From: Acidimicrobiia bacterium
GTDB taxonomy: Bacteria; Acidobacteriota; Vicinamibacteria; Vicinamibacterales; UBA2999
Length of the DNA stretch: 64,000 bases
Assembly (NCBI GenBank): GCA_038144855.1
Contig: JAYQOO010000006.1
Location: forward strand, 9,597 to 73,596
Direction: 5' to 3'
Shown piece after piece: positions 16,864 to 35,787 of the stretch. The stretch's first letter is position 1; each line of letters starts with the position of its first letter. Position numbers and translations under genes: made by a program. The notes beneath the pieces are model-generated. The model made no database searches, was not told where the DNA came from, and saw nothing but the letters and a program-made list of their open reading frames with translations.

Positions 16864-17898
16864 ATGCCTGTTCGGTTGACGCTCGCACTCGTGGCGCTGC
16901 TGCCCATGGCGGTCTGGGCGCAGTTGCCGCGACCCGCTGACCTCGGCGGCATCGTCCGCAGAATGCCCTCGCTCGAGCGGTTCATCAGTAACCGGCCGCT
17001 CGAGACCGACTTCGACGACACGGCCGGCCAGGTGCGGATGCTCGATCGCCTCGAGCGCACGCGCCAGCCTGGTGACTTGCGATCGCTGCCGCGAACCAGC
17101 GGTGGCGCCTTCGTGTTGCGGCCCGGCCTCTGGGAAGGTTCGTTTGAAAGCTTCTGCCTGCGCACGGCGACGTGGGCCCCGGGCGCCGGCGACGGCTACC
17201 TGTGGGCGCCGATCAAGGGATCGCGCTCCGGCGCGATTGCCACCATCCTGCGCAGCGCCGCTCGCCATCCGAATGTGCCGCGCGGCGACATCCAGATGCT
17301 GCTGTGGGCGATCCTGTCGCGAACACGGGTCAGCGAGATGCCGCCGGCGCTACAGGCCGCCGCCCGTGCGCTGCTGCCGGCCGCTGAGATCAACGCCATC
17401 AACGCATCCGGTTTTCAGGCCATCGACATTGCCGAGCGGACGCAACTGTTCCGCGGGGTGAGCGGTCCCATCAGGCAGGCGCTCGAGATCGAATCCGATC
17501 TTCGCTATGAATTTTCAAAGGCCAACGCCAACTACGCCGAAATCGAAAAGATCGCGGTGCTGAGCGGTGCGCCGCCGCCGGAGAATCGCAATGCCATCAC
17601 GCGCGGCCAATGGTCGCGTCATCCCGGCGGCTTCTTCATTCGCTACCTGCCGGATTCGTTCTCGAACATGACGGTGCAGGTGCTCAAGCCCGCGCCGGTC
17701 GTCATCGCGCGCGATCGGCTGAACCGCATCACGCTGATTGAAGACGCGCGGGGCCGAACCGAACTGACCTACAACGACGCGATCGCACCCCGTCCGCACC
17801 CGACCAACAAGCGCCTGGTTGCATACGCGTTCAAGCACATCCGCATCACCAGGCGCGGCGCCGGCGGCGCCATGGAAGTGATCGAGTATCGTGACTAG
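16864..17898 (+). CDS. Secreted hypothetical protein, upstream part ending at in-frame TAG 17896-17898
   Basis: AAGGAG Shine-Dalgarno sequence 9 nt upstream; signal peptide MPVRLTLALVALLPMAVWAQ. No family recognised. The same frame continues as ORF 17941..18354. Confidence 0.6.
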   Translation: MPVRLTLALVALLPMAVWAQLPRPADLGGIVRRMPSLERFISNRPLETDFDDTAGQVRMLDRLERTRQPGDLRSLPRTSGGAFVLRPGLWEGSFESFCLRTATWAPGAGDGYLWAPIKGSRSGAIATILRSAARHPNVPRGDIQMLLWAILSRTRVSEMPPALQAAARALLPAAEINAINASGFQAIDIAERTQLFRGVSGPIRQALEIESDLRYEFSKANANYAEIEKIAVLSGAPPPENRNAITRGQWSRHPGGFFIRYLPDSFSNMTVQVLKPAPVVIARDRLNRITLIEDARGRTELTYNDAIAPRPHPTNKRLVAYAFKHIRITRRGAGGAMEVIEYRD

Positions 17899-17940
17899 GG
17901 CTACACTTTCCACCAGTCGAAACCACGCAGCCGGGGCTTC

Positions 17941-18354
17941 ATGGAAGTGGTGGCTGACGCTGCGACCGCGCTGATCGAACTGGTGACCGGCACACCGCTC
18001 GAGGTGAGGCAGGGGTGGGCGGGCTGGGCTGAACGCGTGGAACGTGCCCAGGAGGTCTACGTAGACGCCGAGTATCTCCGCGACCGCATCGACGCTACCA
18101 CTACGACCGGCGACGCGTCGTCGGTTGATGACGCGGCCGACGCCGGCCACGTCCGCGACGGCGTGATCGTCATCGTAGTTGGCGACACCAGCGACCGCGT
18201 CGGCTTCATTACCGAAATGCAAGAGCGCTTCAACGAGATGCTCGAGTACGCCATCAGTGTGTTGAACACGCTGCCCGACGGCAGCTACGACCCGGGCGGA
18301 GGAGTGGCGGTGCCTTCAGGGGGCGGCCAGACGCTCGGCTCGTCGGGGCGGTAG
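17941..18354 (+). CDS. Hypothetical protein, same frame as 16864..17898 (probable downstream part of one gene)
   Basis: 137-aa ORF with GC-rich third positions. The 14 codons between TAG 17896 and ATG 17941 are also open and coding-like. Confidence 0.5.
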   Translation: MEVVADAATALIELVTGTPLEVRQGWAGWAERVERAQEVYVDAEYLRDRIDATTTTGDASSVDDAADAGHVRDGVIVIVVGDTSDRVGFITEMQERFNEMLEYAISVLNTLPDGSYDPGGGVAVPSGGGQTLGSSGR

Positions 18355-18368
18355 GGGACCTACCGCCC
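18346..18368. terminator. Perfect 10-bp hairpin containing both convergent TAG stop codons
   Basis: GGGCGGTAGG gga CCTACCGCCC. It embeds the stop of the + gene (18352-18354) and the stop of the - gene (18360-18362). Confidence 0.4.
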
Positions 18369-19781
18369 GATCCGATACAGCTTCGTCTGCGTTCGCAGGA
18401 AGATCGCATCCGGCGCGAGCGCGGGCGAGGCAAGACTCATCTCGTCGAGGCTGTTCTTGGCCAGCTCCATGTACTTGTCGCCGGCTTCGATCACGAATGT
18501 GAAGCCGTCCTCGCTCAGCAGGTAGATCTTGCCGTCGGCAGCCCACGGCGACGCTGAGAAGGTGTTGCCGGGCCCGCCGGCGCGTGCCTTGTAGATCTCC
18601 TTGCCGGTCTGCGAGTCGAACACGGTGAGAATGCCATTGTCGTTCACGACGTACATCCGTCCGCGATAGACCAGTGGAGACGAGGTGTAGGCGGACGCGC
18701 GCGGATGGAACCATTTCACGTAGGCGTTGCTCTCCTCGCCCTTCGCGAGCGAGATGTCGCCGCTCGCACCGGGCCGGACCGCGAATACCGGGCGATTGCT
18801 TTCGCCCTGCGAACCGGTCGCGAGGTACAGCAGTCCGTCGGCCGCAACGGGACTCGGCGTGGACTGGCCGGTCAGTCCGCGCATCCGCCACAGTTCCTTG
18901 CCGGTTTCGGGCGAGTAGGAAACGGCGTGCTGGCGTCCGATCACGATCACCTCGGTGCGCTGGCCGTGCTTCCACACAAACGGCGACGACCAGCCCGAGC
19001 CTTGTGGCGCCGTGATGTCGCGCTCGGTCTTCCACAGTTGCTTTCCGGTCCTGGCGTCGACGGCGGCCACGAACGACTGGCCTTCGTTGTCGTTCACCAC
19101 GAACACGCGCCCGTCGTGCACGACCGGTGACGCCGCGGTGCCGAAGTCGAGGTACATCGGCTGCGGATCGAAACGCGCCGTCCACAACGGCCTGCCGTCG
19201 AGCGCGTAGGCAAACAGCCCGACGTTGCCGAAGTACGCATACAGGCGCTCGCCGTCGGTGGCCGGCGTCTCAGACGCGAACGTGTTCTTGCGATGGCGCC
19301 CGCCGAATGGCGCGCCCTTGTGCGCTTCACGTTCCCACGTCAATCGTCCGCTGCCGGCATCGAAAGCGTAGACCATGTAGCGGACCTCGCCGCTTTCGGC
19401 GGTCAGTTCGATGTCACGCGCGATCACGCGCTTGTTGACCTCGTCGTCGGGAAGGCCCTGTTTCATCAGCTCGGCGACGTAGTCGTTGCCGAAAATGCCC
19501 GTGGACGGCGCCTTGAATGCGCCGGGGCTGATCGCGGAGGTGAGGAAAACGTTGTCGGCCCAGGCGATTGGCGACGACCAGCCTCGGCCTTTCACGTCGA
19601 CGCTCCACTTCACGTTGTCCTTTGTGGACCACGACACGGGCAGCTTGCCCTCGCTCAGGATGCCGGCGCCGGATGGGCCCCGGAACTGGGGCCAGGCCAC
19701 TGAAGGCTCAGAGCTCTGCACCAAGGCCGCAGAAAGCACAGAAAGCGCGGAAACGAATGCGGCGAGTCTCAGCGGACGCAT
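18360..19781 (-). CDS. PQQ-like / BamB-like beta-propeller repeat protein, secreted
   Basis: Signal peptide MRPLRLAAFVSALSVLSAA from ATG 19781 (the ORF opens at 19799). Repeated blade motifs: GRVFVVNDNEG, GRMYVVNDNG, DGKIYLLSEDG. Confidence 0.7.
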   Translation of the reverse strand: MRPLRLAAFVSALSVLSAALVQSSEPSVAWPQFRGPSGAGILSEGKLPVSWSTKDNVKWSVDVKGRGWSSPIAWADNVFLTSAISPGAFKAPSTGIFGNDYVAELMKQGLPDDEVNKRVIARDIELTAESGEVRYMVYAFDAGSGRLTWEREAHKGAPFGGRHRKNTFASETPATDGERLYAYFGNVGLFAYALDGRPLWTARFDPQPMYLDFGTAASPVVHDGRVFVVNDNEGQSFVAAVDARTGKQLWKTERDITAPQGSGWSSPFVWKHGQRTEVIVIGRQHAVSYSPETGKELWRMRGLTGQSTPSPVAADGLLYLATGSQGESNRPVFAVRPGASGDISLAKGEESNAYVKWFHPRASAYTSSPLVYRGRMYVVNDNGILTVFDSQTGKEIYKARAGGPGNTFSASPWAADGKIYLLSEDGFTFVIEAGDKYMELAKNSLDEMSLASPALAPDAIFLRTQTKLYRIGR

Positions 19782-19845
19782 TGAGGCAACGTAGCACATC
19801 GAAGCGGCACGGTCCGAGTCTTGTGACGGATCGTTCTCCTGACGG

Positions 19846-19880
19846 CCTGTTGGCCTGTTCGCCTGTTCCCCTGTTCGCCT
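19846..19880. repeat. Tandem 8-nt repeat CCTGTTNN, about 4.4 copies
   Basis: cctgttgg cctgttcg cctgttcc cctgttcg cct, in the divergent intergenic region ending 12 nt before the citrate synthase ATG. Confidence 0.6.
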
Positions 19881-19891
19881 ATCATTTAGTC

Positions 19892-21031
19892 ATGGCCTCA
19901 GCAGAAAAACCCAAGGGCGGTCTCGAAGACGTCGTCGCCACGTCGTCGCGCATCTGTTTCCTTGACGGCGATCGCGGCGTGCTCGCGTATTGCGGACACG
20001 ACATCCACGAACTGGCACGCAATGCGACGTTCGAGGAGACTTGCTACTTGCTCTGGCACGCGCGGCTGCCAAACCGCGCCGAGCTTGGCGATCTGCAGAC
20101 ACAGCTGGCGGCCGCGCGCCCGCTGCCTGAGCCGATCCTGCGGCTGATGAAGATGCTGCCGCCCTCCGACGGCATGGACGCGTTGCGCACGATTACCTCG
20201 GCCCTTGGGCACTACGACCAGGACGCGCACGACAACTCGCTGCCGGCCGCCTATCGCAAGGCGGTGCGCCTCACGGGACAGATCGCCAGCATCGTGGCCA
20301 CGTGGGGTCGCATGCAGCAGGGCCTCGGGCCGATCGCGCCCGACCCGGCGATGGGGCATGCGGCGAACTTTCTCTACATGCTGTTCGGCCGGCGCCCGAA
20401 TCCGACCGAGATTCGCGCGATGGACATCGCGCTCACGCTGCACGCCGATCATGAGCTCAACGCGTCGACGTTTGCGGCGCGCGTGGCGGCGGCGACCCTC
20501 ACCGACATTCACTCTGCGATCGTCGCCGGCATCGGCACCTTGAAGGGACCGCTGCACGGCGGAGCGAACGCGGAAGTCATGAAGATGCTGATCGAGATCG
20601 GGCAGGATGCGCCGGCCGACCGTATCGACGGTTACGTGAAGGACAAGTTCGCCAAGAAGGCCAAGATTTCAGGCTTCGGGCATCGGGTCTACAACACGGA
20701 AGATCCCCGTGCCACGCACCTGCGCAAGATGTCCAAGGAACTCGGGCAGAAGGCCGGCAATACCAAGTGGTTCGAGATGAGCGAGCGGATCGAAGGGCTC
20801 GTCAAGGCCGAGAAGAAGCTGTTTCCGAACGTCGACTTCTATTCGGCGTCCACGTATTACACGATGGGCATTGCGATCGATCTGTACACGCCAATTTTTG
20901 CCGTCAGCCGTATCAGCGGCTGGACGGCGCATGTGCTCGAACAATTGGCCAATAACCGCCTGATTCGGCCCAGGGCCGACTACACCGGTCCCTCGTATCC
21001 CCAGGGGTGGATTCCGCTCGATCAGCGGTAA
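19892..21031 (+). CDS. gltA: Citrate synthase (about 380-aa type)
   Basis: Start at ATG 19892 (MASAEKPKGGLEDVV). Motifs HADHELNAST and GFGHRVY. The ORF's upstream extension from 19568 is Arg/Pro-rich and antisense to the neighbouring gene. Confidence 0.9.
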   Translation: MASAEKPKGGLEDVVATSSRICFLDGDRGVLAYCGHDIHELARNATFEETCYLLWHARLPNRAELGDLQTQLAAARPLPEPILRLMKMLPPSDGMDALRTITSALGHYDQDAHDNSLPAAYRKAVRLTGQIASIVATWGRMQQGLGPIAPDPAMGHAANFLYMLFGRRPNPTEIRAMDIALTLHADHELNASTFAARVAAATLTDIHSAIVAGIGTLKGPLHGGANAEVMKMLIEIGQDAPADRIDGYVKDKFAKKAKISGFGHRVYNTEDPRATHLRKMSKELGQKAGNTKWFEMSERIEGLVKAEKKLFPNVDFYSASTYYTMGIAIDLYTPIFAVSRISGWTAHVLEQLANNRLIRPRADYTGPSYPQGWIPLDQR

Positions 21032-21041
21032 GATCACGGGG

Positions 21042-21587
21042 ATGATGCGAATAGGGAAAGTGTGTCTCGCCATCACTCTGGTGGCGCTGGCGCCGCATGT
21101 CCACGCCCAGACGCCGGCCAACCCCGTCACGCAGGCGCTGCGCAGCGCCTGGAATTCCGTCAAGATGAACGTACGCCGCTCGGCAGACGTCATGCCGGAA
21201 GCAAAATTCAACTTCAAGCCGGTCGACAACGTGCGCACCTTCGGAGCGCTGCTGTCGCACGTTGCCGGCGCGTCGTACGAATTCTGCGCCGCAGCGAAAG
21301 GAGAGAAGCCGCCGTTTGCTGAGGACGCGTTCGAGAAGTCCGCAAAGACCAAGGCCGAGATCGTCAAGGCCCTCGACGGCGCCATTGCCTATTGCGACGA
21401 GATCTACAAGATGCTGGACGACGCCAAGGCCGCGCAGCTCACGGGCGGCGCCTTTGGCGGTCCGCAGGGGGCGCGCGCGGCAAACCTGATCGGCAACACC
21501 GGGCACTTCCAGGAACACTACGGGAACCTCGTGACGTATTTGCGGATCAACGGCCTCGTGCCGCCAAGTTCCGCGCCGCAACAGTAG
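21042..21587 (+). CDS. DinB-family protein with signal peptide
   Basis: 181 aa. Signal peptide LVALAPHVHAQ and a helical-bundle pattern with conserved His residues (LLSHVAG, GHFQEHYGNL). Confidence 0.55.
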   Translation: MMRIGKVCLAITLVALAPHVHAQTPANPVTQALRSAWNSVKMNVRRSADVMPEAKFNFKPVDNVRTFGALLSHVAGASYEFCAAAKGEKPPFAEDAFEKSAKTKAEIVKALDGAIAYCDEIYKMLDDAKAAQLTGGAFGGPQGARAANLIGNTGHFQEHYGNLVTYLRINGLVPPSSAPQQ

Positions 21588-21621
21588 CGTAATCGTCGTC
21601 GTTATCAGCCAGCAGGAGTCG

Positions 21622-23058
21622 ATGATGAAGAAGTCTTTGGCAGTGGCGTTTGCGGCACTCGCGGCCGCCGTCGTCTGGTCGGGCAGTTCAGTGAATGCGG
21701 AGCAGGCCGCCGCGAGCGCAGCGGCGCCGACGTTCACCAAGGATGTGGCGCCGATCTTCTTTGCGAACTGCACCAGTTGCCATCGGCCGGGCGACATCGC
21801 GCCGATGTCGCTGCTGACTTACAAGGACGCGCGCCCATGGGCGAAGTCCATTGCCAGCAAGGTTGCCGACGGCTCGATGCCGCCGTGGCACGCCGATCCG
21901 AAATACGGCTCGTTCTCAACCGCACGCAGCCTGACCGATGCGCAAAAGCAGACGATCACCAGGTGGGTTGCGGCCGGCGCTCCCGAAGGCAAGGCGAGTG
22001 ACCTGCCTGCGGCGCCGGTCTACACGGATGAATGGAACATCGGCACGCCGGACGCGGTGCTGTCGATGACCGAGGACTATCCGATTCCGGCGACTGGTGA
22101 GATTCCCTACCAGTACCTGATCGTGCCGGCGAACTTCGCCGAGGATCGCTTCATTACCGATTGGGAGATTCGTCCTGGCGATCGTCAGGCGGTGCATCAT
22201 TTGTTGCTCTACCTGTTGGCACCGAAGGAAATCGCCGAAGCGCAGGCGAAGCAGCGGCAGCAGGCGATGCTCGGACGGATGTTCGGTCCGGCACCTGCCG
22301 CCGGCACTCCGCGACCGGTCGCACCGTTTGAGTTTGCGTGCTGCGTGCAGATTCCCAACGGCGAAGAAGGCGGTCGTCCGCTGCCGCCGGAACTGCGCCA
22401 GGATCCGGGTCCCAACTACCGCGCGCGCCCGGTGGGTATGGCGCAGGGCATGGGCGGCTTCTCGCCCGGTGGATCGGTCCGCCATTTCCCCGAGGGTATG
22501 GGCATGCGCATTCCTAAGGGCTATTCGCTCGTGTTCCAGATGCACTACACGGCCTACGGGAAGGCCAGCACCGATCGCTCGAAGATCGGCTTGAAGTTTG
22601 CGAAGACGCCGCCCAAGACGATCCTCAACACCCTTGCGTTGATCAATGCGTCGCTGTCGATTCCGCCGGGGGCGACCAATCATCTGGTCGAGAACACGAT
22701 GACGTTCAACCGCGACACGATGATTTACAGCCTGATCCCGCACACCCACGTGCGCGGTACTGGCTGGCACTACGAGGCCACCTACCCGGACGGCCGCAAG
22801 GAAGTGATCCTCTCGGTGCCGAAGTACGATTTCAACTGGCAGCACGAATACGTCTTCTCACAGCCGTGGAAGGTTCCGGCCGGCACCAAGCTCCTCGCCA
22901 AGGCGTGGTACGACAACTCGGCGAAGAACAAGTCGAATCCTGATCCGACCAAGACGGTGACGTGGGGCGACCAGACGTGGGAGGAGATGATGTACACGTC
23001 CATCACCTACGCTTTCGCTCCGGCGCCGACCGCCACCCCCGCGCGCCAGCAACAGTAG
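21622..23058 (+). CDS. Secreted heme-c-like (CxxCH) plus PHM/DBH-like copper monooxygenase domain protein, paralog 1
   Basis: Signal peptide; FTKDVAPIFFANCTSCHRPGDIAPMSLLTY ... GSMPPWHADP. This is followed by the copper-ligand pattern VHHLL, FQMHYT, PHTHVRG, WEEMMY (HH..H..HxH..M). Confidence 0.7.
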   Translation: MMKKSLAVAFAALAAAVVWSGSSVNAEQAAASAAAPTFTKDVAPIFFANCTSCHRPGDIAPMSLLTYKDARPWAKSIASKVADGSMPPWHADPKYGSFSTARSLTDAQKQTITRWVAAGAPEGKASDLPAAPVYTDEWNIGTPDAVLSMTEDYPIPATGEIPYQYLIVPANFAEDRFITDWEIRPGDRQAVHHLLLYLLAPKEIAEAQAKQRQQAMLGRMFGPAPAAGTPRPVAPFEFACCVQIPNGEEGGRPLPPELRQDPGPNYRARPVGMAQGMGGFSPGGSVRHFPEGMGMRIPKGYSLVFQMHYTAYGKASTDRSKIGLKFAKTPPKTILNTLALINASLSIPPGATNHLVENTMTFNRDTMIYSLIPHTHVRGTGWHYEATYPDGRKEVILSVPKYDFNWQHEYVFSQPWKVPAGTKLLAKAWYDNSAKNKSNPDPTKTVTWGDQTWEEMMYTSITYAFAPAPTATPARQQQ

Positions 23059-23075
23059 TGCACGCCGGGCCCTGG

Positions 23076-23108
23076 CTGACGCGGCGGCGGAACCGTTCGC
23101 CGCGTCAG
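23076..23108. terminator. Perfect 11-bp hairpin between convergent genes
   Basis: CTGACGCGGCG, an 11-nt loop, then CGCCGCGTCAG. It overlaps the TGA stop of the minus-strand esterase gene. Confidence 0.5.
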
Positions 23109-23707
23109 CGCAAGCCTTCGAAGTAACTGAACATCGCGCCCCAGGCGTCGGCGTTCTTGGCGAGCCCGCCATGTGCGCCGGTTGGATCCTCGTAGAGGCG
23201 CTCGACGTATCCGCCGTAGCTCGTGATCCAGGTGCGTGCCATCCGCATTCCGTCGCACATCGGCCAGCCCTGCACGGAGTCCAGGGCGCCGCAGTACATC
23301 CAGAATTTGGCGCTGTTGTAGGCGGTGGTCTCACTGCGCGCCGCGATGTCTTCCATGACCGGCACCATCGGTCCGCCCGGCGACCACGAGCCTGAGTTGT
23401 TGCCGGTGGCCTTGAACATCCGCCGATCCTTCAGGTCGCGATAGGTGACCGGAAAGCTCTCCGCCGATCCCCGGGAGAAGCCGACCAGGAACATCGACGG
23501 CGAGCCATAGGCACATGACCGCGTGACGTCATCGATCATCGCCTTGATGTTCGCGTAGATCGTGCTGTCGTCATCGTGGACGCCGGTTGTGTCGTCCACA
23601 TACTTGAGGCCGATGTAGGCCCAGCCTCGAGCTGACAGGATGTCTTTCCAGTCGACCGACCATTCGGTTTCGGGTGCTCCGCCGGTGCCATGCAGCCCAA
23701 TCAGCAC
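23105..23707 (-). CDS. Alpha/beta-hydrolase (esterase/depolymerase-like), downstream part of a TAG-interrupted gene
   Basis: Begins inside the oxyanion-hole segment (V)LIGLHGTGG and carries the nucleophile elbow GFSRGS. Same frame as 23729..24037. Confidence 0.65.
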   Translation of the reverse strand: MLIGLHGTGGAPETEWSVDWKDILSARGWAYIGLKYVDDTTGVHDDDSTIYANIKAMIDDVTRSCAYGSPSMFLVGFSRGSAESFPVTYRDLKDRRMFKATGNNSGSWSPGGPMVPVMEDIAARSETTAYNSAKFWMYCGALDSVQGWPMCDGMRMARTWITSYGGYVERLYEDPTGAHGGLAKNADAWGAMFSYFEGLR

Positions 23708-23728
23708 GCGACGGGTCGTAGACGACGC

Positions 23729-24037
23729 CTAGCTCGACGGAAACCACATCGCAAAGTAGCGGCTGTTCACGGCGCGGACGCCGCCGCCGGCGGCATAGAG
23801 CGATTCTCGCTGCGTCTGCACCTCGCCGCGGCCGGCCGGCACGCCGGTTGCGCGTTGAGTGGCCGCCCACGTGGCGCACGCGGTCTGCGTCACCGTCGTT
23901 GCCACGCTTGTGCTTGCCGTAGTGGTGGCCGGGGAGGGAGAAGTCGGCCCGCTGCTGCCGCATGCGGCCGCCCCCAGGATGGCGGCCAGACCGGCACCGA
24001 TCCGGCACGCGCGTCGCAACCCAGGGAGCATCGACAT
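23729..24037 (-). CDS. Lipoprotein-signal N-terminal part of the esterase, ending at in-frame TAG (23731..23729)
   Basis: MSMLPGLRRACRIGAGLAAILGAAAC is lipobox-like. It ends ...RYFAMWFPSS, which runs through the TAG into ASSTTRRVLIGLHG. Confidence 0.6.
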   Translation of the reverse strand: MSMLPGLRRACRIGAGLAAILGAAACGSSGPTSPSPATTTASTSVATTVTQTACATWAATQRATGVPAGRGEVQTQRESLYAAGGGVRAVNSRYFAMWFPSS

Positions 24038-24068
24038 GCTCAGTCAGACCATCCTCGCAGCAGGAAGT

Positions 24069-25439
24069 TTAACGGTCGCGACGCCGGATGGGCGACGCCA
24101 GCAGGACGCCGACGCAGAAGGCGAGGGTGGCTACCGCCGCGGCATTCAGCCACCCAAACATGGCGGGCACCTTCCAATGCGGTTGTTGCCTGGCGGCGAA
24201 CCGTTCCAGGTCATCGCGCTCGGTGGCGCGAATCAGGTCGAACGGCTGGAGGCCGTTCAACTCCGGAAACAGCAGGCTCGACGCATTGGTCAGGTTCAGC
24301 GCGCCGTCCCGCTCCAGCGTGATGGCGCCTTCGCGCACCTTTGGCGTGAAGTACTCGTTGTCGTAACCAAACAGCGGTTCGTAGACGAGTTGACTGCTGG
24401 CGTTCTCGGCGATGGCCCGGTCGTCGGTGATGAGGTCGTTGCGGAGGACCGGGAATGTCTCGCCGGCGCGGATGCGCTCGTGGACGCGCACCGAAGCCGA
24501 TACGTCAAAGGTGCGGCGATGCACGTAGTCCGGCAGGGTGAGATAGAAGAGCGGTGCGGCGACCGCGATCGCAACGGCGAGGTTGACCAGCGATCGCCGT
24601 GCCGTGCGTTGCCAGCGATCGAAGAGTAACGCGGCCGCGATGGTCAGCGGCAGGATCAGCACCGCCGCGACGCGATGGTTGACGTGCATCGAGCGAAGAA
24701 CCGGCAGCGACTTCAGCCAGGGATACAGCACGCCCTTTGCGAGCGTGGTCTCGATCGTGATCCAGGTCATGAGCGCAAGGCCGGCGATCGCGACGGCCAT
24801 CGCCGGCGAGGGCCGCTGCAGCCCATGTCTCCACAGCCGCACGCCGCCCAGAACCGCGCCTGAGACCAGCGTCAGCGTCACGACTGGTGACAACGCCGTG
24901 TCGATTTCCCAGAGATGAACGCCGGCGCCTGTCGCCCAGATAAGCGCGTCGTCGAGTCGCTGCGGGAGATAGCCGCCAGCGACCAGGATCGGAAGGATGG
25001 TCAGGCCGCCGGCAAGCTGCGAGCCGAGGCCAAACAGCGCATGGCCGAATCCGATCGGGTAGCTGTCAAACAGTTCGCGAGGAAAGCGGCCCATCAACGC
25101 CTGGACCGCGACGATCTTCGAGGCGCACAGACCGATCGTCAGCGGCAGCGCGCGCGCAAGGATGCCGACGAGCGACGCCCAATTGATTGCGGGGCGTCCC
25201 GCGACCTGCAGCACCTGGAGCGCCAGCACGAGCGTGCCGCTGCACAGCACGAGGATCAGGGCCCCGCCTTGATGCAGCATCAACGCCGCGCAGAGCGCGA
25301 TGACGCAGGCATTCTCGATCGGTCGTCCTTGCGGGCGGGTCAGCGCATGGAGCATGGTCGACACCAGCGGGAACAGCAGGAAGCCGACGTGACCGACGAT
25401 GGCATGTTCGATGGAGAAGCCGTTGGCGGCGAGCCCCAC
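24069..25439 (-). CDS. Polytopic membrane protein, downstream part of a TAG-interrupted gene
   Basis: 456-aa ORF with at least 9 hydrophobic helices, then a soluble domain and a final TM helix. Same frame as 25479..25814. Function unknown; a large membrane glycosyltransferase or polymerase is only a guess. Confidence 0.6.
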   Translation of the reverse strand: MGLAANGFSIEHAIVGHVGFLLFPLVSTMLHALTRPQGRPIENACVIALCAALMLHQGGALILVLCSGTLVLALQVLQVAGRPAINWASLVGILARALPLTIGLCASKIVAVQALMGRFPRELFDSYPIGFGHALFGLGSQLAGGLTILPILVAGGYLPQRLDDALIWATGAGVHLWEIDTALSPVVTLTLVSGAVLGGVRLWRHGLQRPSPAMAVAIAGLALMTWITIETTLAKGVLYPWLKSLPVLRSMHVNHRVAAVLILPLTIAAALLFDRWQRTARRSLVNLAVAIAVAAPLFYLTLPDYVHRRTFDVSASVRVHERIRAGETFPVLRNDLITDDRAIAENASSQLVYEPLFGYDNEYFTPKVREGAITLERDGALNLTNASSLLFPELNGLQPFDLIRATERDDLERFAARQQPHWKVPAMFGWLNAAAVATLAFCVGVLLASPIRRRDR

Positions 25440-25478
25440 GGCGCCAATGATGCTGGCCGAGGGCGCAAGCCCCAGGGT

Positions 25479-25814
25479 CTATGACAGCAACAAGTACATG
25501 GACCAGTAGCCCACGCCGGTGGCGATGGCGATCGTGGCCGCGACCGCAAACCACGGAGTGGTCGCAAACAGCAGCGCCTGGAGCGGCGAATACTGCATGT
25601 GCTGCGGGTTGGCGAAGGCAGGCAGGCCGCCACAGAAACTCGGCGTGTACCACTGAACGCCGAGGCCGTTCAGCCGCAGATGCAGGTCGGTGTCGAGGAG
25701 GCGAGGCACGAAGTACGCGAAATCGTGCCCCACGAGCGGATAGTCACGCCCCACGATCAGCAACAGGATGCCGACCGTGGCGGCGCAGCAGATGAGCGGG
25801 AACGCCCTCGTCAA
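25479..25814 (-). CDS. N-terminal part of the polytopic membrane protein, ending at in-frame TAG (25481..25479)
   Basis: 111 aa with 3 TM helices. TTG start 11 nt after the amidohydrolase stop. The 13 codons after the TAG (TLGLAPSASIIGA) remain hydrophobic and coding-like. Confidence 0.55.
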   Translation of the reverse strand: MTRAFPLICCAATVGILLLIVGRDYPLVGHDFAYFVPRLLDTDLHLRLNGLGVQWYTPSFCGGLPAFANPQHMQYSPLQALLFATTPWFAVAATIAIATGVGYWSMYLLLS

Positions 25815-25825
25815 TCTCGCGGCGG

Positions 25826-27028
25826 CTATTGCGGCCAGCCGGTTTGCGGCAGGCCCTTGAAGACCTTCAGCGCCGTCTTGTAATACACGCTCTTGAGCAC
25901 CTCATCCGACAACCCCATGCCGTACATCTTCCACGTGGCGTGGTAGTCGCGGTAGTAGTCGAAGTACTCGTCGTTGGTCTCGAACACGCGCCAGTAGTAG
26001 GGATATTCCTCGGGCTGGAACGAATCCTTGCCGAACATGATGCGGTCCTTGTACTTCGTGAAGAACTCGCGCGCGGCGCGGGGCTGGCGGCCGAGGTCGT
26101 AGAGAATGGCGCCGGCCTCGATCGTCACGTTCGGGAACTCATCGAGCATCTTCGCGGCGCGCGCCAGGTCGTTGGCGTGCCAGCCGAAGTGGGCGGCGAC
26201 AAAGCGCGTCTTCGGATGCTTGCGGAACACGTTGTTGCGCTCCGTCATCAACTGTTCGAACGTCACCTGGCCAGGCTGGTTGTTGCGCCGATCCGGGAAC
26301 AGCGACAGCTCGAGCCAGCGTTCGTTCTTGTAGTCGAGCGGCTGGAAGAACTCCTGCGGCTCGGCGGTGTGAATGAAGGCCGGCACGTCGAGGCGCGCAA
26401 ACGCCGCCCACAGCGGATCCAGTTCTGGATCGTCGATCTTCAACCGTGAGCCGTCGGGCTTGGTGGTGCGGAGCCCGAACGACTTCGGCACTTCGCCGAC
26501 GCCGATGGCGCCGGCCTTGACGTCGGCTTCGAGTTGCTGCGCCGCCTTCTGGCCCCAGCCCGGCCCGACGTTGCGTAAATCGATCCCGGCGAGCACGCGG
26601 AAGCGTTCCTTGTGCGGCGAGGCATTCAACGCTTCGAGCGTGCGGGTGAGGCGCTCGCCCGAGACGTTCTCGGCGACGAGCATGACCTTGAGGTTCAGCG
26701 AGTCCATGATGCCGATCACGCGGTTGATCTGCTCAGGCGTGGTCAAGGCGCCGGGATGCCCGTGGACGTCGACCGCCGGGAACTTCGCCTTCGGCACCTT
26801 GTGCTCGGCGGTCACCAGCGTGCCGCGCGGGCGGTAATCCAGGATGCTTGGCGCGGGCTCCGACGGCGCCTGGCAATTGCCCGGGCGCACTTCCGTCGTG
26901 CCCGGCGGGCATTCCTGTCCCGGATTGATTCGAGTCCCGCCGCTCATGCCTTGCGCCGCGAGCCCGGCGCCGACGAGGCCACTGAAGATGACGATAAGGG
27001 GCGTTCGTGAAAGTCGCATTGACAACAT
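25826..27028 (-). CDS. Amidohydrolase-family metal-dependent hydrolase, membrane-anchored or secreted
   Basis: Start set at ATG 27028 (MLSMRLSRTPLIVIFSGLVGAGLAAQG). Motifs FPAVDVHGHPG (HxH) and AAHFGWHAND. The upstream part of the ORF is Arg/Ser-rich and antisense to the CoA-transferase gene. Confidence 0.75.
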   Translation of the reverse strand: MLSMRLSRTPLIVIFSGLVGAGLAAQGMSGGTRINPGQECPPGTTEVRPGNCQAPSEPAPSILDYRPRGTLVTAEHKVPKAKFPAVDVHGHPGALTTPEQINRVIGIMDSLNLKVMLVAENVSGERLTRTLEALNASPHKERFRVLAGIDLRNVGPGWGQKAAQQLEADVKAGAIGVGEVPKSFGLRTTKPDGSRLKIDDPELDPLWAAFARLDVPAFIHTAEPQEFFQPLDYKNERWLELSLFPDRRNNQPGQVTFEQLMTERNNVFRKHPKTRFVAAHFGWHANDLARAAKMLDEFPNVTIEAGAILYDLGRQPRAAREFFTKYKDRIMFGKDSFQPEEYPYYWRVFETNDEYFDYYRDYHATWKMYGMGLSDEVLKSVYYKTALKVFKGLPQTGWPQ

Positions 27029-27080
27029 TATGAACCGTCCGCCGAACGTACGTCGAACGTGGCCGGACGCCCGGGGGTGG

Positions 27081-29019: not shown

Positions 29020-29020
29020 C

Positions 29021-29034
29021 GGCTACCGGCTACC
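29021..29034. repeat. Two tandem GGCTACC heptamers at a convergent gene junction
   Basis: ggctacc ggctacc lies directly after the TAA stop (29017-29019) of the + gene. It contains the TAG stop (29032..29030) of the - gene. Confidence 0.4.
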
Positions 29035-30304: not shown

Positions 30305-30314
30305 CAGCACTCCC

Positions 30315-33221
30315 TCATCGCTGTAACAGAGACCGCAAGAGTATCGCCGGATGCACCGCCTCGACACTAGCGAGATCGGCCACCTGGTGGCGGCACGAGG
30401 TGCCACCGGCCACCAGCACTGAGCCCTCCTTCATCGCGCGGGCCGCCGGCAGCAGCTTTCGCTCCGCGATCGCGGACGAGACGTCGTAGTGGTCTTTCGT
30501 ATAGCCAAACGATCCTGCCATGCCGCAGCATCCGGCCTCGAGATCGACCACCGACGCCCCCGGGATCCTCGAGAGCAGCGCCTTGGCAGGCGCAGCGAGG
30601 CCCATCGACCGCTGGTGGCAGTGCGGATGCAAGAGGATCTGAGACGGCCCGGGCTTCACCGGCAGCTCCGCGCGGCCTTCCGCGCACTCGCGTTCGAGAA
30701 ACTCTTCGAAGAGGACTGACTGGCTGGCGATCACCCGCGCCCGTCGCTGCTGCTCGCCGCGCAGCAGATCCGGCGCGTCTTCGCGGACGGCTGACAGGCA
30801 GCTTGGCTCGACGAACACGATCGCCTGCCCGCGTTCGGCCGCGTCGAACAGCGCGTTCACATTGGCCTCGGCTTGATACCGCGCCTCCGCAAGCCGTCCC
30901 TGTGAGATCAACGGACGCCCGCAACACCGATTGGGCGCAATCGCGGTGGAGATGCCGGCAGCGTTCATCACCTCGAGCGCCGCCAGCCCGATCTCCGGGT
31001 CTGCATTGTTGGTAAACGTGTCGGCAAACAGGAGCGCTTTCGCGGATCCCTGGTGCCCGAATCCAGACCCCTGTTTCCGTAACGTCGCTCGCGTCCACTG
31101 TGGGAGTGAGCGCCTGCGGTCGAGGCCAATCAGTTTCTCTGCGGCCCACCGGCCGAGTGCGCTGTTGGCGATGGTGTTCGACAGCGGCGCCAATCGGCTG
31201 CCCCACACCGCGGCGGCGTGACCGTCCCCAAACGCGCGAGCGCCCACCGACATGCCGTGCCGTTCCCAGTAGCCGGCGAGGAACTCGCTCTTGTATCGAG
31301 CGACGTCGACGCCGACCGGGCACTCGCTCTTGCAGGCGCGGCATTCAAGGCACAAGTCGAGGACCTCGTGCACGTCCTTGTCTGCCCGTTGCTGGTCGCC
31401 AAGCTGTCCAGCCATCGCCAGCCGCAGCGTGTTGGCGCGGCCGCGAGTGGAGTCCGCTTCATCGCGCGTCACCATGTACGACGGGCACATCGTGCCTTCG
31501 CGCTTCTTGCGGCACAGGCCGACACCACTGCACGACTCGACGGCCCGGCCAAAACCTTCGGCCCCCGAGAAATCGAAGAACGTGACCGGCTGCGGCGTGA
31601 TGTACCCAGCGCCATAGCGCAGGTGCGATGTGATCGGCGGCGTGTCGACAATGCGGCCGGGGTTGAAGATGCCCTGAGGATCAAAGGTCTTCTTCACCTG
31701 GCGGAACGCGCCGTACAGCTCGGAGCCGAACATCTTCTCGTTGAAGGCACCGCGCACGAGGCCGTCGCCGTGTTCGCCCGATAGCGCGCCGCCAAACGCG
31801 AGCACCAGGTCGGCGACCTCATTGGCGATGGCCTCGAACATCGCCACGCCCTCAGCGGTCTTCAGGTTCACGACCGGCCGCACGTGCAGGCAGCCGACGG
31901 AGGCGTGCGCGTAAACACCGGCCGTCGTGTGGTGACGTTTCACGATGCCGATGAATTGCTCGATGTAGTCACGCAGCTTCTCTGGCGCCACGGCCGTGTC
32001 TTCGACGAACGAGATCGCCTTGCCGTCCGACGTTGTCGCCGTCGACAGGCCGAGCGCGGCTTCGCGGAAACTCCAGATCCGCGCCTGAGCGCCGGCATCG
32101 ATCACCTGTCGTACCGCCCGCGGTGAGGCCGCCGCCACATCTCTGGCGAGACCGTCCATGCGCGAGCGCAGTTCGTCGACCGTGTCGGCGTAGAACTCCA
32201 CGCACAGCAGCGCCGAGCCGTCAGCCGTCAACATCGCCTGCCGCTGCGCGTTCAGGACGGGATGGCCCTTGGCGTGCGACAGGATGAAGTCGTCCATCAC
32301 CTCGACCGCGGACGGTCGGTGCTTGAGGATCAAGGGGGTTGCGCCCAAGGCGTCGAGCAGTCGATCGAACTCGATCGTCATCACCGACTTCTGCGCCGGC
32401 AGGGGGACCAGGTTGATCTTGGCGTCGACGATGAAGCCGAGCGTGCCCTCGGAGCCAACCATGATCCGCGTCAGGTCCACCGGCGTCGCGGCGCTGACGA
32501 AGGCGTCGAGGTTGTAACCGCCGACGCGTCGCAGGACTTTCGGGAACCGCCGGTCGATCTCCGCTGCGTGCCGCAGCCCGAGAGCCGGAATCTCGCGATA
32601 GGCGCGCGCTTCTATGCTGTCGCCCTGTTGCGCCAGAGCGGCGGCCGATGCGTCAAGCGGCCTGAGGTGGGCGAGCCTGGCGTCGGCCAGCACCACACGC
32701 TGCGCGAGGACGTGATCGATCGTCTTGCCGTACAACACCGATCGCGCGCCGCTCGAGTTGTTGGCCATCATGCCGCCAACGGTGGCGCGGCTGGCCGACG
32801 ACACATCAGGAGCGAAGCGCAGGTGGTGTTGACGCAGCTGCGCGTTCAGTTCATCGAGCACGACGCCGGGTTCGACCCGCGCCCAACGCTGATCCGGGTT
32901 CACTTCGAGGACGCGGTTCAGGTGCTTCGACGTATCGAGCACCAGTCCTGCACCAATCGACTGACCGGCCTGTGACGTGCCGCCGCCGCGGGGCGTGATC
33001 GGCACACCGTGCCGCGCCGCGATCTCGACGGCGCGCGCGACGCCTTCCGCCGATCTCGGAATCACGACGCCGAGCGGTTCGATCTGGTAGACGCTGGCGT
33101 CGGTCGAATACAACGCCCGCGTCATCTTGTCGAAGCGGACTTCGCCGTCGACCGCGTGCGTCAGTTCGCGCTGTAGAGAGGACGACACTACTGGGACTTG
33201 CCGCGCGCGGCGATGGGCCAC
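30315..33221 (-). CDS. Fused FAD-binding oxidase plus Fe-S/CCG-domain protein (GlcD-GlcF-like 2-hydroxyacid dehydrogenase)
   Basis: FAD_binding_4 motif ITPRGGGTSQAGQS, ferredoxin motif CLECRACKSECP, and C-terminal CCG motif AGCCGMAGSFG. An alternative GTG start at 33188 abuts the upstream TAG. Confidence 0.85.
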   Translation of the reverse strand: MAHRRARQVPVVSSSLQRELTHAVDGEVRFDKMTRALYSTDASVYQIEPLGVVIPRSAEGVARAVEIAARHGVPITPRGGGTSQAGQSIGAGLVLDTSKHLNRVLEVNPDQRWARVEPGVVLDELNAQLRQHHLRFAPDVSSASRATVGGMMANNSSGARSVLYGKTIDHVLAQRVVLADARLAHLRPLDASAAALAQQGDSIEARAYREIPALGLRHAAEIDRRFPKVLRRVGGYNLDAFVSAATPVDLTRIMVGSEGTLGFIVDAKINLVPLPAQKSVMTIEFDRLLDALGATPLILKHRPSAVEVMDDFILSHAKGHPVLNAQRQAMLTADGSALLCVEFYADTVDELRSRMDGLARDVAAASPRAVRQVIDAGAQARIWSFREAALGLSTATTSDGKAISFVEDTAVAPEKLRDYIEQFIGIVKRHHTTAGVYAHASVGCLHVRPVVNLKTAEGVAMFEAIANEVADLVLAFGGALSGEHGDGLVRGAFNEKMFGSELYGAFRQVKKTFDPQGIFNPGRIVDTPPITSHLRYGAGYITPQPVTFFDFSGAEGFGRAVESCSGVGLCRKKREGTMCPSYMVTRDEADSTRGRANTLRLAMAGQLGDQQRADKDVHEVLDLCLECRACKSECPVGVDVARYKSEFLAGYWERHGMSVGARAFGDGHAAAVWGSRLAPLSNTIANSALGRWAAEKLIGLDRRRSLPQWTRATLRKQGSGFGHQGSAKALLFADTFTNNADPEIGLAALEVMNAAGISTAIAPNRCCGRPLISQGRLAEARYQAEANVNALFDAAERGQAIVFVEPSCLSAVREDAPDLLRGEQQRRARVIASQSVLFEEFLERECAEGRAELPVKPGPSQILLHPHCHQRSMGLAAPAKALLSRIPGASVVDLEAGCCGMAGSFGYTKDHYDVSSAIAERKLLPAARAMKEGSVLVAGGTSCRHQVADLASVEAVHPAILLRSLLQR

Positions 33222-34288
33222 ACGTCGTCGACGCGATCACCGCGCAGGCAGTAGATCCGATCGTAGAGATTGACCGTCGGATCGATGTGTGGCGGGATGA
33301 ACTCGACCCGGTCGCCGACCTGGAACTCCCGCGACGACTGCGACGTGTCCAGGCGGCCGTGCTCGTCTCCCGCCCAGTGGTACGTCACCTCGTCGAGGCC
33401 GACCGCACGCGGCGTGAACGGCCGATCGGTGGAGAACGCCTTGTAGCCGCCATCGACGATCGCGATCCCGGCGGAACGCGACACGATCGTCGTCACCACC
33501 GTCAGCGAATTCTTGAAGTCACGGTACTCGGTGCCGTCCGGTCCGCCGATCATCCCGTACTCCATGTCCATGAACACGAAGCTGCCCGGCTGGATCTCGG
33601 TGATACCCGGATTCTCGGAGTCGACGCGATAGGTGCCGGTCGATCCTGCGGTCACCATCGGGCAGGCGATGCCGGCGCGCTCGATCAGCGCTTTCGTCTC
33701 GATCGCCTTCGCCATGTTGGTGTTGGTGCGGACCGCCCGCGCGTCAAAGGGCGTCGTGTGCGCGGCGGCGCCGTCGTACGACTGCAGGCCAACCAGCGTC
33801 ACGTGCGGCAACTTATCGATCAACTGCGCCAGCTCTACTGCCGGCTGACCTGGCTGGATGCCGGTGCGGCCAAAGAACAGGTCGATTGCCAGCTTGATCG
33901 GCTCGCCGCCGCCCCTGGCTGCGGCAGCGTCGTTGAGGTCGCGTACGTTCTGGCGGTTGTCCACCACGTAGATCGTGTCGGGCGCCTTCGTGGCGAGGTC
34001 GATCGCGCGCGCGATCTTGTCGCGGCCAATGACGGCGGTCGTGATCAGCAGGCCCGGAATCCCGCTCTCAGCAAACACCTCGGCCTCGCTCAGCCTGGCG
34101 GCACAGCACCCGATCGCACCCGCGCGCAGCAGCGCCTTGGCGACCTCAGGGCACTTGTGCGTCTTGCCGTGCGGTCGAAACGCCTTCTGCCGCGTTCTGA
34201 GATGCGACGACATCTTCGCGATGTTGTCTTCGAAGGCGTCGAGGTCGAGAAGAAGGGCTGGGGTTGGAACGTCGCCGCGCAACTGCAT
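33188..34288 (-). CDS. DSD1-family PLP enzyme (D-serine / D-threo-3-hydroxyaspartate dehydratase or D-threonine aldolase-like)
   Basis: N-terminal alanine-racemase-like barrel with FRPHGKTHKCPEVA (PLP lysine), and a C-terminal D-serine-dehydratase-like domain. Confidence 0.8.
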   Translation of the reverse strand: MQLRGDVPTPALLLDLDAFEDNIAKMSSHLRTRQKAFRPHGKTHKCPEVAKALLRAGAIGCCAARLSEAEVFAESGIPGLLITTAVIGRDKIARAIDLATKAPDTIYVVDNRQNVRDLNDAAAARGGGEPIKLAIDLFFGRTGIQPGQPAVELAQLIDKLPHVTLVGLQSYDGAAAHTTPFDARAVRTNTNMAKAIETKALIERAGIACPMVTAGSTGTYRVDSENPGITEIQPGSFVFMDMEYGMIGGPDGTEYRDFKNSLTVVTTIVSRSAGIAIVDGGYKAFSTDRPFTPRAVGLDEVTYHWAGDEHGRLDTSQSSREFQVGDRVEFIPPHIDPTVNLYDRIYCLRGDRVDDVWPIAARGKSQ

Positions 34289-34458
34289 GGAACGCCGAAT
34301 GCTAGCACTGTGTCACGAGGTTGCGCATCCCTGTCATCGCGTGCTCGGCGCAGCTTGGTGCGCGCCGGCGCCTCACTCGTAACCGTTCCGCCCAATCCAA
34401 AGCAGGATCCAGGAGCCACTCGTCATGGCCACGACCTGGGCACGTCGGATCCAATGCG

Positions 34459-35121
34459 TTAGCGGTCCCAGTCGAACTCCAGCCGGTTGGCTCGCAAGGT
34501 GTCGCGAATCGTGCCGGGCAGCACGTTTGACCGCCTCGCGTCTTGCACCGCTCGTTGCATCAGACCGCGGAACTGCTGGATGTCGCTCTGCAGGGCGCCA
34601 TAGAGCGTGACGCAGCCGGCGGCGGCGTCGCCGGGGATGCCCCGCGGCACGAGCACGGCAAACCATTCGCGGTCGTAGCTGCCGGCGATCGGCGAGGTGT
34701 AGCACTGCCGGCGAAATCGCTGCCAGGCCGTGTCGAGCTGCGAGGCACCGGAGACCAACTGTCGAATCGCCGCCCGGAACCCCTCGTCGCCCTGTTGCTG
34801 CAGCCGTTCGCTTTCGGAGCCTCGCACTTGCGACTGGATGTCGGTCAGGCCGCCCGACGCGCCGAGGTTCGCCTGGCGCCCGTCGAGCAGATCCTTCGCG
34901 TGATCGATCGCGACACCAAAGTTCAGGCCCTGCGCGCCCTTGTAGCCCATCGTCGTGATCGCGACGACCGCGCCGTTGCGGTCGAGCATCGGGCCGCCAC
35001 TGTTGCCGGTGTTGGTCGCGGCGTCGGTCTGCACCAGCGTGACGCCGCCCGCGGATCGAAGACCACTCATGACGCCGCGCGAGACGCTGTTTTGCAATGT
35101 GCCGAGGGCCGAGCCGATCAC
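34459..35121 (-). CDS. Trypsin-like serine protease, downstream part (catalytic Ser) of a TAG-interrupted gene
   Basis: TDAATNTGNSGGPMLD (catalytic Ser motif) followed by an unrecognised, roughly 140-aa C-terminal domain. Same frame as 35149..35787. Confidence 0.7.
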   Translation of the reverse strand: MIGSALGTLQNSVSRGVMSGLRSAGGVTLVQTDAATNTGNSGGPMLDRNGAVVAITTMGYKGAQGLNFGVAIDHAKDLLDGRQANLGASGGLTDIQSQVRGSESERLQQQGDEGFRAAIRQLVSGASQLDTAWQRFRRQCYTSPIAGSYDREWFAVLVPRGIPGDAAAGCVTLYGALQSDIQQFRGLMQRAVQDARRSNVLPGTIRDTLRANRLEFDWDR

Positions 35122-35148
35122 GATGATCTCCTGGCCCGCGCGAAGGGA

Positions 35149-35787
35149 CTACGACGTCCCCATGGTGATGGTCGGCTGTGACGGCAGGGGCTGCGTCACC
35201 TTCAGCACGGCGACGTCGAAGGCCGGCGCGCGAGATTCCACCCGGGCCTGCGCGGTGGTGCCATCGTGCTTGCGCAGCGTGGCGTAGTTGTCGTTCTGCA
35301 CGACGTGCACGTTGGTCATCAGCGTGTCGTGACGCACGAAGAATCCGCTGCCCCGGCCGCTGGTGGTCTCGATCAGGACGATGGCGGGCATGGCCTTTGC
35401 GACCATCTCCTCGATCGTTGCCGCCGATGCGGGAACAACCGGGGCGGCGGGCACATTGCTGCCAGGCACGAGCGGCGGCAGCGACCTGGCGGCGGCGTCC
35501 CACGCGCGAGCTTCTGGTGACGCGTCGCCTGCCTGCGCGCGCTCGTCGGTCTGCTCGGTGTCGTCAGCGGGTGCCTCGCCGACCTCGGCGGCCGGCGGCC
35601 TCAGAAAGATCCAGTAGCCGCTGCTGGCGACCGTCAGCGTCAGGACGACGGCCAGCACAACGGGCCCCACTGTTGAGGAGGCCGGCGCTGTGGGCGCGAC
35701 CGCTGGCTCCGGCCCGGCCGCTGGAAGGGGGGATTCGACGAGGGGTAACTCAGTGCCACAGCGGTAATTGGCCACCGTATTCGGCAC
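35149..35787 (-). CDS. Trypsin-like serine protease, N-terminal part (TM anchor, catalytic His and Asp), ending at in-frame TAG (35151..35149)
   Basis: TM helix VGPVVLAVVLTLTVASSGYWIF, GSGFFV, TNVHVV (His) and FDVAVLKV (Asp). Ends ...ITMGTS then TAG, then SLRAGQEIIVIGSALG. Confidence 0.7.
   Translation of the reverse strand: MPNTVANYRCGTELPLVESPLPAAGPEPAVAPTAPASSTVGPVVLAVVLTLTVASSGYWIFLRPPAAEVGEAPADDTEQTDERAQAGDASPEARAWDAAARSLPPLVPGSNVPAAPVVPASAATIEEMVAKAMPAIVLIETTSGRGSGFFVRHDTLMTNVHVVQNDNYATLRKHDGTTAQARVESRAPAFDVAVLKVTQPLPSQPTITMGTS

Follow-up and report, generated by a model that had tools for sequence, protein, structure and literature searches.

Four genes for exported or membrane proteins, all within one 64-kb stretch of DNA (the whole stretch analysed, hereafter the window), each carry a single in-frame TAG codon. 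Very probably, these codons are true nonsense mutations of recent origin in dispensable exported/envelope-protein genes and do not reflect an altered genetic code. Within a single lineage of a freshwater, Vicinamibacterales-like acidobacterium that is uncultivated, the four genes would have been truncated by single G:C>A:T transitions and would now be pseudogenes, or loss-of-function alleles that are still segregating, with no recoding involved. In closely related strains, these few genes have been inactivated repeatedly by differing lesions, while nearby genes of metabolism and housekeeping are undamaged.

Interrupted genes

Translation of the window bore out an earlier note, made from the sequence alone, which had described four pairs of same-frame open reading frames (ORFs), each split by one TAG. 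The frame is otherwise continuous, and the next start codon lies 14, 7, 13 and 9 codons from the TAG in g1 to g4, respectively. The four genes are as follows.

g1, 16864..18354, plus strand: secreted protein of 496 codons with a signal peptide, family unassigned; TAG at codon 345 (17896-17898)
g2, 23105..24037, minus strand: lipoprotein of 310 codons, labelled "predicted esterase" by JGI; TAG at codon 103 (23729-23731)
g3, 24069..25814, minus strand: polytopic membrane protein of 581 codons, family unassigned; TAG at codon 112 (25479-25481)
g4, 34459..35787, minus strand: membrane-anchored trypsin-like serine protease (Trypsin_2); TAG at 35149-35151

The products were also said to be exported or membrane proteins, and the corresponding marks were found (signal peptide, lipobox, many transmembrane segments and transmembrane anchor, in g1 to g4 order). 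Searches of Pfam and NCBIfam did not place g1, g2 or g3 in any family. In g4, the Pfam Trypsin_2 domain spans residues 146-277 and the TAG (residue 213) falls inside it; sister strains start this gene near 35661, giving 399-400 amino acids (aa). The export signals of g2 and g4 are upstream of the TAG, and the GFSRGS serine motif of g2 (invariant among orthologues) and the GNSGGP serine motif of g4 are downstream. Truncation would remove these putative catalytic-serine motifs, and the position of the TAG suggests that g1 and g3 would also lose an essential part; the truncated products are thus predicted to be non-functional.

No gene in the window contains an in-frame TGA or TAA, and a scan of the whole window for any stop with coding-like GC3 on both sides detected no further interrupted gene. 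Same-frame pairs at TGA 40661, TAA 51014 and TAA 63415 proved to be separate intact neighbours; the pair at TAG 42194 was likewise no disruption, nor were the ORFs that overlap at 43.2-46.4 kb, all of these being separate intact genes.

Reproducibility of the alleles

The window belongs to a metagenome-assembled genome, which was recovered from a mixed population, and all four changes are of the transition type that cytosine deamination damage produces; both points would fit TAGs that are artefacts of assembly, consensus or sequencing. Per-run Logan assemblies were compared, together with ENA, NCBI and Logan assemblies of other projects. Contigs independently assembled from SRR26337511, SRR26337512 and SRR26337522 were 100% identical to the window, TAGs included, and the g2 and g3 TAGs recur in the assemblies of the other projects (ENA, NCBI and Logan); the g3 TAG is also in SRR20069388. 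The overall substitution spectrum against a sister strain is symmetric (C>T, 258; T>C, 258), and a global G:C>A:T excess caused by damage or a deaminase was rejected on this basis. Since separate assemblies, made from several runs and by several projects, give identical alleles, an artefact is excluded as highly improbable.

Ancestral codons

Alignment of orthologues at each TAG identified ordinary Gln and Trp codons in close strains. Strains from other metagenomes that are 92-99.9% identical have CAG, TGG, CAG and CAG at the g1, g2, g3 and g4 sites, respectively (ancestral Gln in g1, g3 and g4; Trp in g2), so each TAG derives from a single G:C>A:T transition (three CAG>TAG and one TGG>TAG). 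For g1, loci L013 and L017-L019 have CAG (intact at 496 aa in L017/L018), and L027/L028, both 100% identical to the window, have TAG. For g2, TGG was found in L013, L014, L038 and L039 and TAG in L015-L021 and L023-L026, covering at least 10 samples. The g3 TAG is common to the window, L015 and L016; P0001, an uninterrupted form of the protein (581 aa), carries Q112 and G61. For g4, L013 and L038-L042 have CAG, and L029-L031, all 100% identical to the window, have TAG.

Orthologues of all four genes are uninterrupted ORFs. The residue aligned with the TAG is W, F or H among orthologues of g2 and K, L, Q, M, A or S in more distant orthologues of g4, and site 112 of g3 is variable among 28 homologues. 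The TAG alleles are confined to strains that have diverged by no more than 0.3%, and each TAG maps to one clade. When the C-terminal fragment of g3 was searched against species-representative genomes, no relative was found.

These observations bear on the possibility that UAG is recoded at specific sites, as pyrrolysine or some other non-standard residue, which we consider exceedingly improbable. Its sole support is that UAG is the interrupting codon in all four genes. Against it, close strains have ordinary Gln or Trp codons, distant orthologues are variable or merely aromatic at the sites, and the TAGs are not conserved beyond strains that are about 0.3% diverged. None of g1 to g4 (a protease, a predicted esterase and two unassigned envelope proteins) is a methylamine methyltransferase, the 64-kb window contains no pyl gene or tRNA, and the TAGs share no sequence context. 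The base after the TAG is G, G, A and T (g1 to g4) with no common downstream motif, as the earlier note had stated; programmed stop-codon read-through was rejected on this ground, on the restriction of the TAGs to strains ≤0.3% diverged and on the few differences between TAG-bearing alleles, which look unconstrained (see below).

Fifteen recent changes could be polarised along the branch leading to the window, and 9 of them are G:C>A:T transitions. A methylation-type motif (CCWGG>CTAGG) was rejected as a common cause: only g1 fits (CAG within CCAGG in the sister strain), the g2 change is TGG>TAG rather than C>T, and the numbers of CTAGG/CCTAG match expectation.

TAG as a terminator

TAG is the commonest true terminator in the window, closing 18 of 33 confidently called ORFs; at these gene ends the TAG is kept in every strain, mostly with no back-up stop close by. 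The TonB-dependent receptor ends in VGLNVGAF followed by TAG, with a C-terminal Phe, as had been reported. Exclusion of genome-wide UAG reassignment within this window therefore stands, given the 18 of 33 ORFs that end in TAG. The accompanying statement that TAG stops sit in terminator hairpins did not hold, since terminator-like sites number 13, versus 12.3 in shuffled sequence.

Two further features to which the earlier note had drawn attention are not statistically remarkable. Under this codon usage, 62-67% of random nonsense mutations would give TAG, so that four of four amber codons has a P value of about 0.16-0.20. About half of the window's genes are exported or membrane genes by our own count, so four of four such products has a P value of about 0.05. 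The predominance of TAG is attributable to the abundance of CAG, TGG, GAG, TCG, AAG and TAC codons in this 65% GC genome, each one step from TAG, and to recent mutations in the lineage being mostly G:C>A:T.

Recurrent lesions in sister strains

These genes also carry other lesions. In g1, L013 and L032 have a 286-bp out-of-frame deletion, independent of the TAG. The g2 TAG allele of L015 has also lost 1 nucleotide (nt) at nt 35. In g3, 1 nt is inserted at nt 563 in L017-L026, L032-L037 lack 2 nt at nt 658, and L038/L039 lack the gene altogether. The 2-nt deletion is the only lesion located within a short (GC)n run. A fifth gene, intact in the window, also belongs to the repeatedly broken set.

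PQQ gene, 18360..19799, minus strand: PQQ-like beta-propeller exported protein of 479 aa, with Pfam and NCBIfam PQQ/BamB-like matches

This gene has TGG>TAG at codon 256 in L013, L032 and L037 (with an additional AAA>TAA at codon 70 in L037) and has lost 1 nt at nt 50 in L017 and L019. Altogether, about 12 independent lesions are spread over 5 of the 16 genes; the remaining 11, which are interleaved with these, have none and are intact in all strains compared. The rough probability of this clustering is 4e-4 (0.016 within the best-covered four-gene block). One observation counts against ordinary decay: the window's line of descent has four amber lesions out of four and no indel, compared with one TAG, one TAA and six indels, deletions or absences in other lineages (Fisher's exact test, post hoc: P = 0.01 for TAG versus other lesions and P = 0.06 for nonsense versus indel).

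The earlier note had left open pseudogenisation, suppression or recoding, and artefact. The frameshifts, deletions and TAA found in the same genes of sister strains, evidence of the sort that the note itself had set as refuting the exotic options, support the first and, together with the evidence above, count against the others.

Constraint and the fate of the alleles

Long-term dN/dS values of 0.12-0.18 imply that g1 and g4 were functional until recently. After interruption, the few differences present among TAG-bearing alleles gave no sign of purifying selection. The two g3 alleles with TAG112 differ by zero synonymous and three nonsynonymous changes. One window-specific change, G61C (25632-25634), lies in a conserved motif of g3 whose Gly is at least 90% conserved over 28 homologues. 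In g1, window-specific changes run toward rare A/T-ending codons. Second lesions have arisen on TAG alleles, with TAA over TAG256 in the PQQ gene (L037) and the 1-nt deletion over TAG103 in g2 (L015). The g2 TAG allele is widespread, with a second lesion in 1 of about 12 copies, and its divergence (≤0.3%) is too low to separate decay from maintenance.

Leaky termination or an amber suppressor tRNA, with full-length proteins still made and amber alleles nearly neutral, is unlikely. It would account for the exclusively amber, indel-free lesions on the window's descent line, for the variable, tolerant positions of the g3 and g4 TAGs and for the frequency of the g2 TAG allele across samples, and a published survey argues that bacterial in-frame stops are often read through (PMC7918605). 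However, TAG ends about half of the genes, is conserved there and mostly lacks a close second stop, so that suppression would add extensions to a large part of the proteome. The frameshifts, deletions and TAA in the same genes, the second lesions on TAG alleles, the radical change at a conserved Gly and the chance expectation for four ambers given above also argue against it. Neither the window nor the related loci (23 loci, about 250 kb) yielded a tRNA gene, which also counts against a suppressor here and is uninformative on suppressors elsewhere in the genome. A variant confined to the window's lineage, in which a suppressor tRNA or weakened RF1 makes UAG leaky and amber alleles near-neutral while TAG is still the main terminator, is very unlikely.

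Another reading takes the stops as a reversible regulatory device, with CAG<->TAG toggling that lowers surface-protein expression, as proposed by Belinky et al. 2021; we find it decidedly unlikely here. In its favour, the stops vary within the population and lie in genes that are otherwise conserved (long-term dN/dS below 1), they resemble the CAG/TAG example in that survey (PMC7918605), and the affected genes encode exported/envelope proteins. Yet no reversion is visible, each TAG being in a single clade, and the same genes carry irreversible lesions (the 286-bp deletion and whole-gene absence). Point mutation also has no elevated site-specific switching rate, and only the 2-nt deletion allele of g3 lies in a (GC)n run.

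Ordinary, recent and recurrent gene loss remains the preferred explanation, with selection possibly in its favour. Loss of these proteins would be tolerated, or may even be favoured, for example through escape from phages or grazers or through cost saving.

Relation to known systems

The result takes one candidate for genetic-code variation off the list. In GC-rich genomes, in-frame stops will mostly be amber by mutation alone, which is useful to consider in recoding screens. The locus is also a possible natural example of parallel, perhaps adaptive, gene loss in an uncultivated freshwater acidobacterial population, and it flags unannotated exported/envelope proteins as conditionally dispensable.

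Parallel adaptive loss of surface or exported proteins occurs in natural bacterial populations. The present case is similar in that many independent nonsense, frameshift and deletion alleles fall in a few envelope genes with intact neighbours; it differs in that selection would have to be deduced from the pattern, which relaxed constraint alone could also give. In nature, UAG is recoded by the pyrrolysine system (pylTSBCD) and by amber suppressor tRNAs, and some phages and ciliates have reassigned TAG to Gln. The in-frame UAGs followed by sequence that is still coding-like resemble such systems. Unlike them, TAG is the dominant terminator here, sister strains have Gln or Trp at the sites, non-TAG lesions are found in the same genes, and the window contains no tRNA or pyl genes.

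Belinky et al. 2021 surveyed in-frame stop polymorphisms in bacteria and proposed a regulatory role for them (PMC7918605). As in the surveyed cases, the TAGs described here are single-base changes (CAG or TGG to TAG) in otherwise conserved genes, confined to very close strains with identical flanks. Unlike those cases, several neighbouring genes are affected in one strain, with independent lesions in sister strains; such clustered, independent lesions argue for gene-specific relaxed or positive selection for loss, and not for scattered neutral polymorphism or read-through.

Translation across four ORF pairs singled out in an earlier note gave one unbroken frame in each, interrupted by a single in-frame TAG as claimed, with G, G, A, and T as the 3′ bases described for the four genes:

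17896–17898 (+), TAG of g1 (secreted protein with a signal peptide)
23729–23731 (−), TAG of g2 (lipoprotein, predicted esterase)
25479–25481 (−), TAG of g3 (polytopic membrane protein)
35149–35151 (−), TAG of g4 (membrane-anchored Trypsin_2 serine protease)

The Trypsin_2 domain of g4 (residues 146 to 277) straddles the TAG (residue 213), and g4 is therefore a single split gene, not two genes. Scanning the window (GC content, 65%) for stops with coding-like GC3 on both sides found no further interrupted genes, and the amber-only pattern was confirmed there (four in-frame ambers; zero in-frame opals or ochres). Other same-frame ORF pairs parted by TGA or TAA (DUF167-like/HutI, two exported proteins, and FtsX/M23 peptidase) were rejected as broken genes, being distinct genes; TPR/YggS, parted by TAG, were also separate genes. 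A helicase ORF overlapping SHMT was rejected as a disruption, being a GC-rich shadow upstream of the true helicase start.

TAG was a normal conserved terminator in the window, and the earlier exclusion of genome-wide UAG reassignment stands. Among 33 confidently called ORFs, 18 ended in TAG, 10 in TAA, and 5 in TGA; each terminal stop was conserved across strains, and the TonB-dependent receptor ends in GAF-TAG as stated. The next in-frame stop was distant after most terminal TAGs, so an efficient suppressor would lengthen a large part of the proteome. GC-rich bacteria usually prefer TGA stops; stop usage in the window was TAG-rich and TGA-poor for 65% GC, and TAG was also frequent in related Vicinamibacterales loci. 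The tetranucleotide CTAG was strongly depleted (15 observed versus 64 expected from trinucleotide frequencies).

The nearest species-level relatives were Vicinamibacterales (Acidobacteriota) MAGs (protein identity, 71 to 80%). Exact-protein look-ups (JGI, ENA, NCBI, and Logan assemblies) recovered strain-level contigs (labeled by L numbers here; 92 to 100% DNA identity), one of which carries a freshwater metagenome label. At the TAG sites, strain-level relatives encode CAG (g1), TGG (g2), CAG (g3), and CAG (g4), each one G:C>A:T transition from TAG. Besides these Gln and Trp codons, the ortholog alignment proposed in the earlier note gave variable residues in distant orthologues for g3 and g4 (K, L, Q, M, A, or S in g4) and aromatic residues for g2 (W, F, or H). 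Contig L013 was 99.5 to 100% identical to the window over a block of ∼9 kb (∼17850 to 27050) and 89 to 95% identical on both sides, a mosaic that indicates recent recombination or a sweep between lineages.

The TAGs are not assembly artefacts, since they recur in independent assemblies of several runs and samples: those of g1, g3, and g4 in separately assembled contigs of SRR26337511, SRR26337512, and SRR26337522 (100% identical to the window), that of g3 also in SRR20069388, and that of g2 in 11 contigs, which represent at least 10 samples. Relative to a 96%-identical sister contig, the substitution spectrum as a whole was symmetric (C>T, 258; T>C, 258), so the damage-like bias of an artefact is absent.

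Given the codon usage of the window (CAG, 3.2%; TGG, 1.3%; GAG, 3.1%; TCG, 2.6%; AAG, 3.0%; CAA, CGA, and TCA, ∼0.4 to 0.5% each), TAG makes up 62 to 67% of random single-base nonsense mutations at any reasonable transition:transversion ratio, and the probability of four ambers out of four is therefore ∼0.16 to 0.20. Among the 15 recent changes that could be polarised on the window branch, 9 were G:C>A:T transitions, the class converting CAG and TGG to TAG. That all four products are exported was correct, but is statistically weak because about half of the window genes encode exported or membrane proteins.

Disabling lesions were surveyed in 16 genes across all strains.

Lesions and intact alleles in the five affected genes
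g1: TAG, window clade; out-of-frame 286-bp deletion, L013 and L032; intact, L017 to L019
g2: TAG103; extra −1 nt in L015
g3: TAG112, window, L015, and L016; +1 nt at nt 563, L017 to L026; −2 nt within a (GC)n run at nt 658, L032 to L037; gene wholly absent, L038 and L039; intact, L013, L014, and three database proteins
g4: TAG, window clade only
PQQ-propeller gene: TGG>TAG at codon 256, L013, L032, and L037; AAA>TAA at codon 70, added to the codon-256 TAG, L037; −1 nt at nt 50, L017 and L019; intact, window

The ∼12 independent disabling events (5 TAG, 1 TAA, 5 indels, and 1 absence) were confined to these 5 of 16 genes (rough clustering probability, 4e-4, or 0.016 when limited to the four best-sampled genes). 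The other 11 (two M16 peptidases, citrate synthase, DinB, a 478-amino-acid [aa] exported protein, amidohydrolase, CoA-transferase, enoyl-CoA hydratase, CitMHS, FAD oxidase, and D-Ser dehydratase) had no disabling lesions in any strain compared.

Three side observations concern this region. In the freshwater-metagenome strains L038 and L039 (13875 to 13962, equivalent to window 23968 to 25824), g3 is missing and a 331-aa version of g2 comes immediately after the amidohydrolase gene. In L017 to L026, all 30 g3 codons differing from the window (codons 2 to 189; window 25248 to 25811) lie upstream of codon 189, so a recombination breakpoint coincides with the +1 frameshift (codon 188). The 478-aa exported protein (21622 to 23058, +; family unknown), intact in all 16 strains, had a pN/pS of ∼1 among close strains (4 to 6 nonsynonymous versus 1 to 2 synonymous) and may be under diversifying or relaxed selection.

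The TAG alleles themselves show signs of decay. Second lesions occur on top of TAGs in L015 and L037, and the two TAG112-bearing g3 alleles differ by three nonsynonymous and no synonymous changes. One of the three, the window-specific G61C (GGT>TGT, 25632 to 25634, −), falls within the near-invariant QWYTPSFGGGLPA motif of g3, at a position occupied by Gly in every other strain and in at least 90% of homologues. In g1 and the 3′ end of the PQQ gene next to it (17568 to 18555), the window carries seven private derived changes within 1 kb (∼10× the substitution density elsewhere in the near-identical region). Every one of them, the g1 TAG included, is a G:C>A:T transition; those other than the TAG and one A>V create rare A/T-ending synonymous codons. 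Their density could stem from g1 decaying neutrally or from locally clustered mutation. For g1 and g4, long-term dN/dS (0.12 to 0.18 versus a 92%-identical strain) implies that both were functional until recently.

The four TAGs are thus real, recent nonsense mutations in dispensable exported/envelope-protein genes, which this population repeatedly loses. g2 and g3 adjoin on one strand, and the g2 TAG is the older lesion, common to two clades; g3 was then disabled independently in several sub-lineages. Such a pattern is typical of a decaying functional unit, which the pair may represent. Positive selection for loss, beyond mere tolerance, is possible but somewhat less likely than not.

Amber suppression making UAG leaky in the window's lineage is very improbable. 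The amber-only line of descent is the sole feature that it also predicts: all four lesions there are amber, whereas other lineages carry mostly indels (Fisher's P, 0.01 for TAG versus other lesions and 0.06 for nonsense versus indel, both post hoc with small numbers). The transition-dominated recent spectrum, however, adequately explains this. No tRNA genes of any kind were found in the window or the related sequences scanned. Membership of any recoding system was rejected: the testable features that define reassignment, pyrrolysine recoding, or programmed read-through were lacking.

A published survey (PMC7918605) argues that in-frame stops in bacteria are frequently short-lived polymorphisms that may undergo read-through. 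Here the alleles with frameshifts, deletions, or TAA speak against any need for read-through; the present stops match the short-lived-polymorphism part of that survey and are a new instance of an already-known phenomenon, nonsense pseudogenes and loss-of-function polymorphism.
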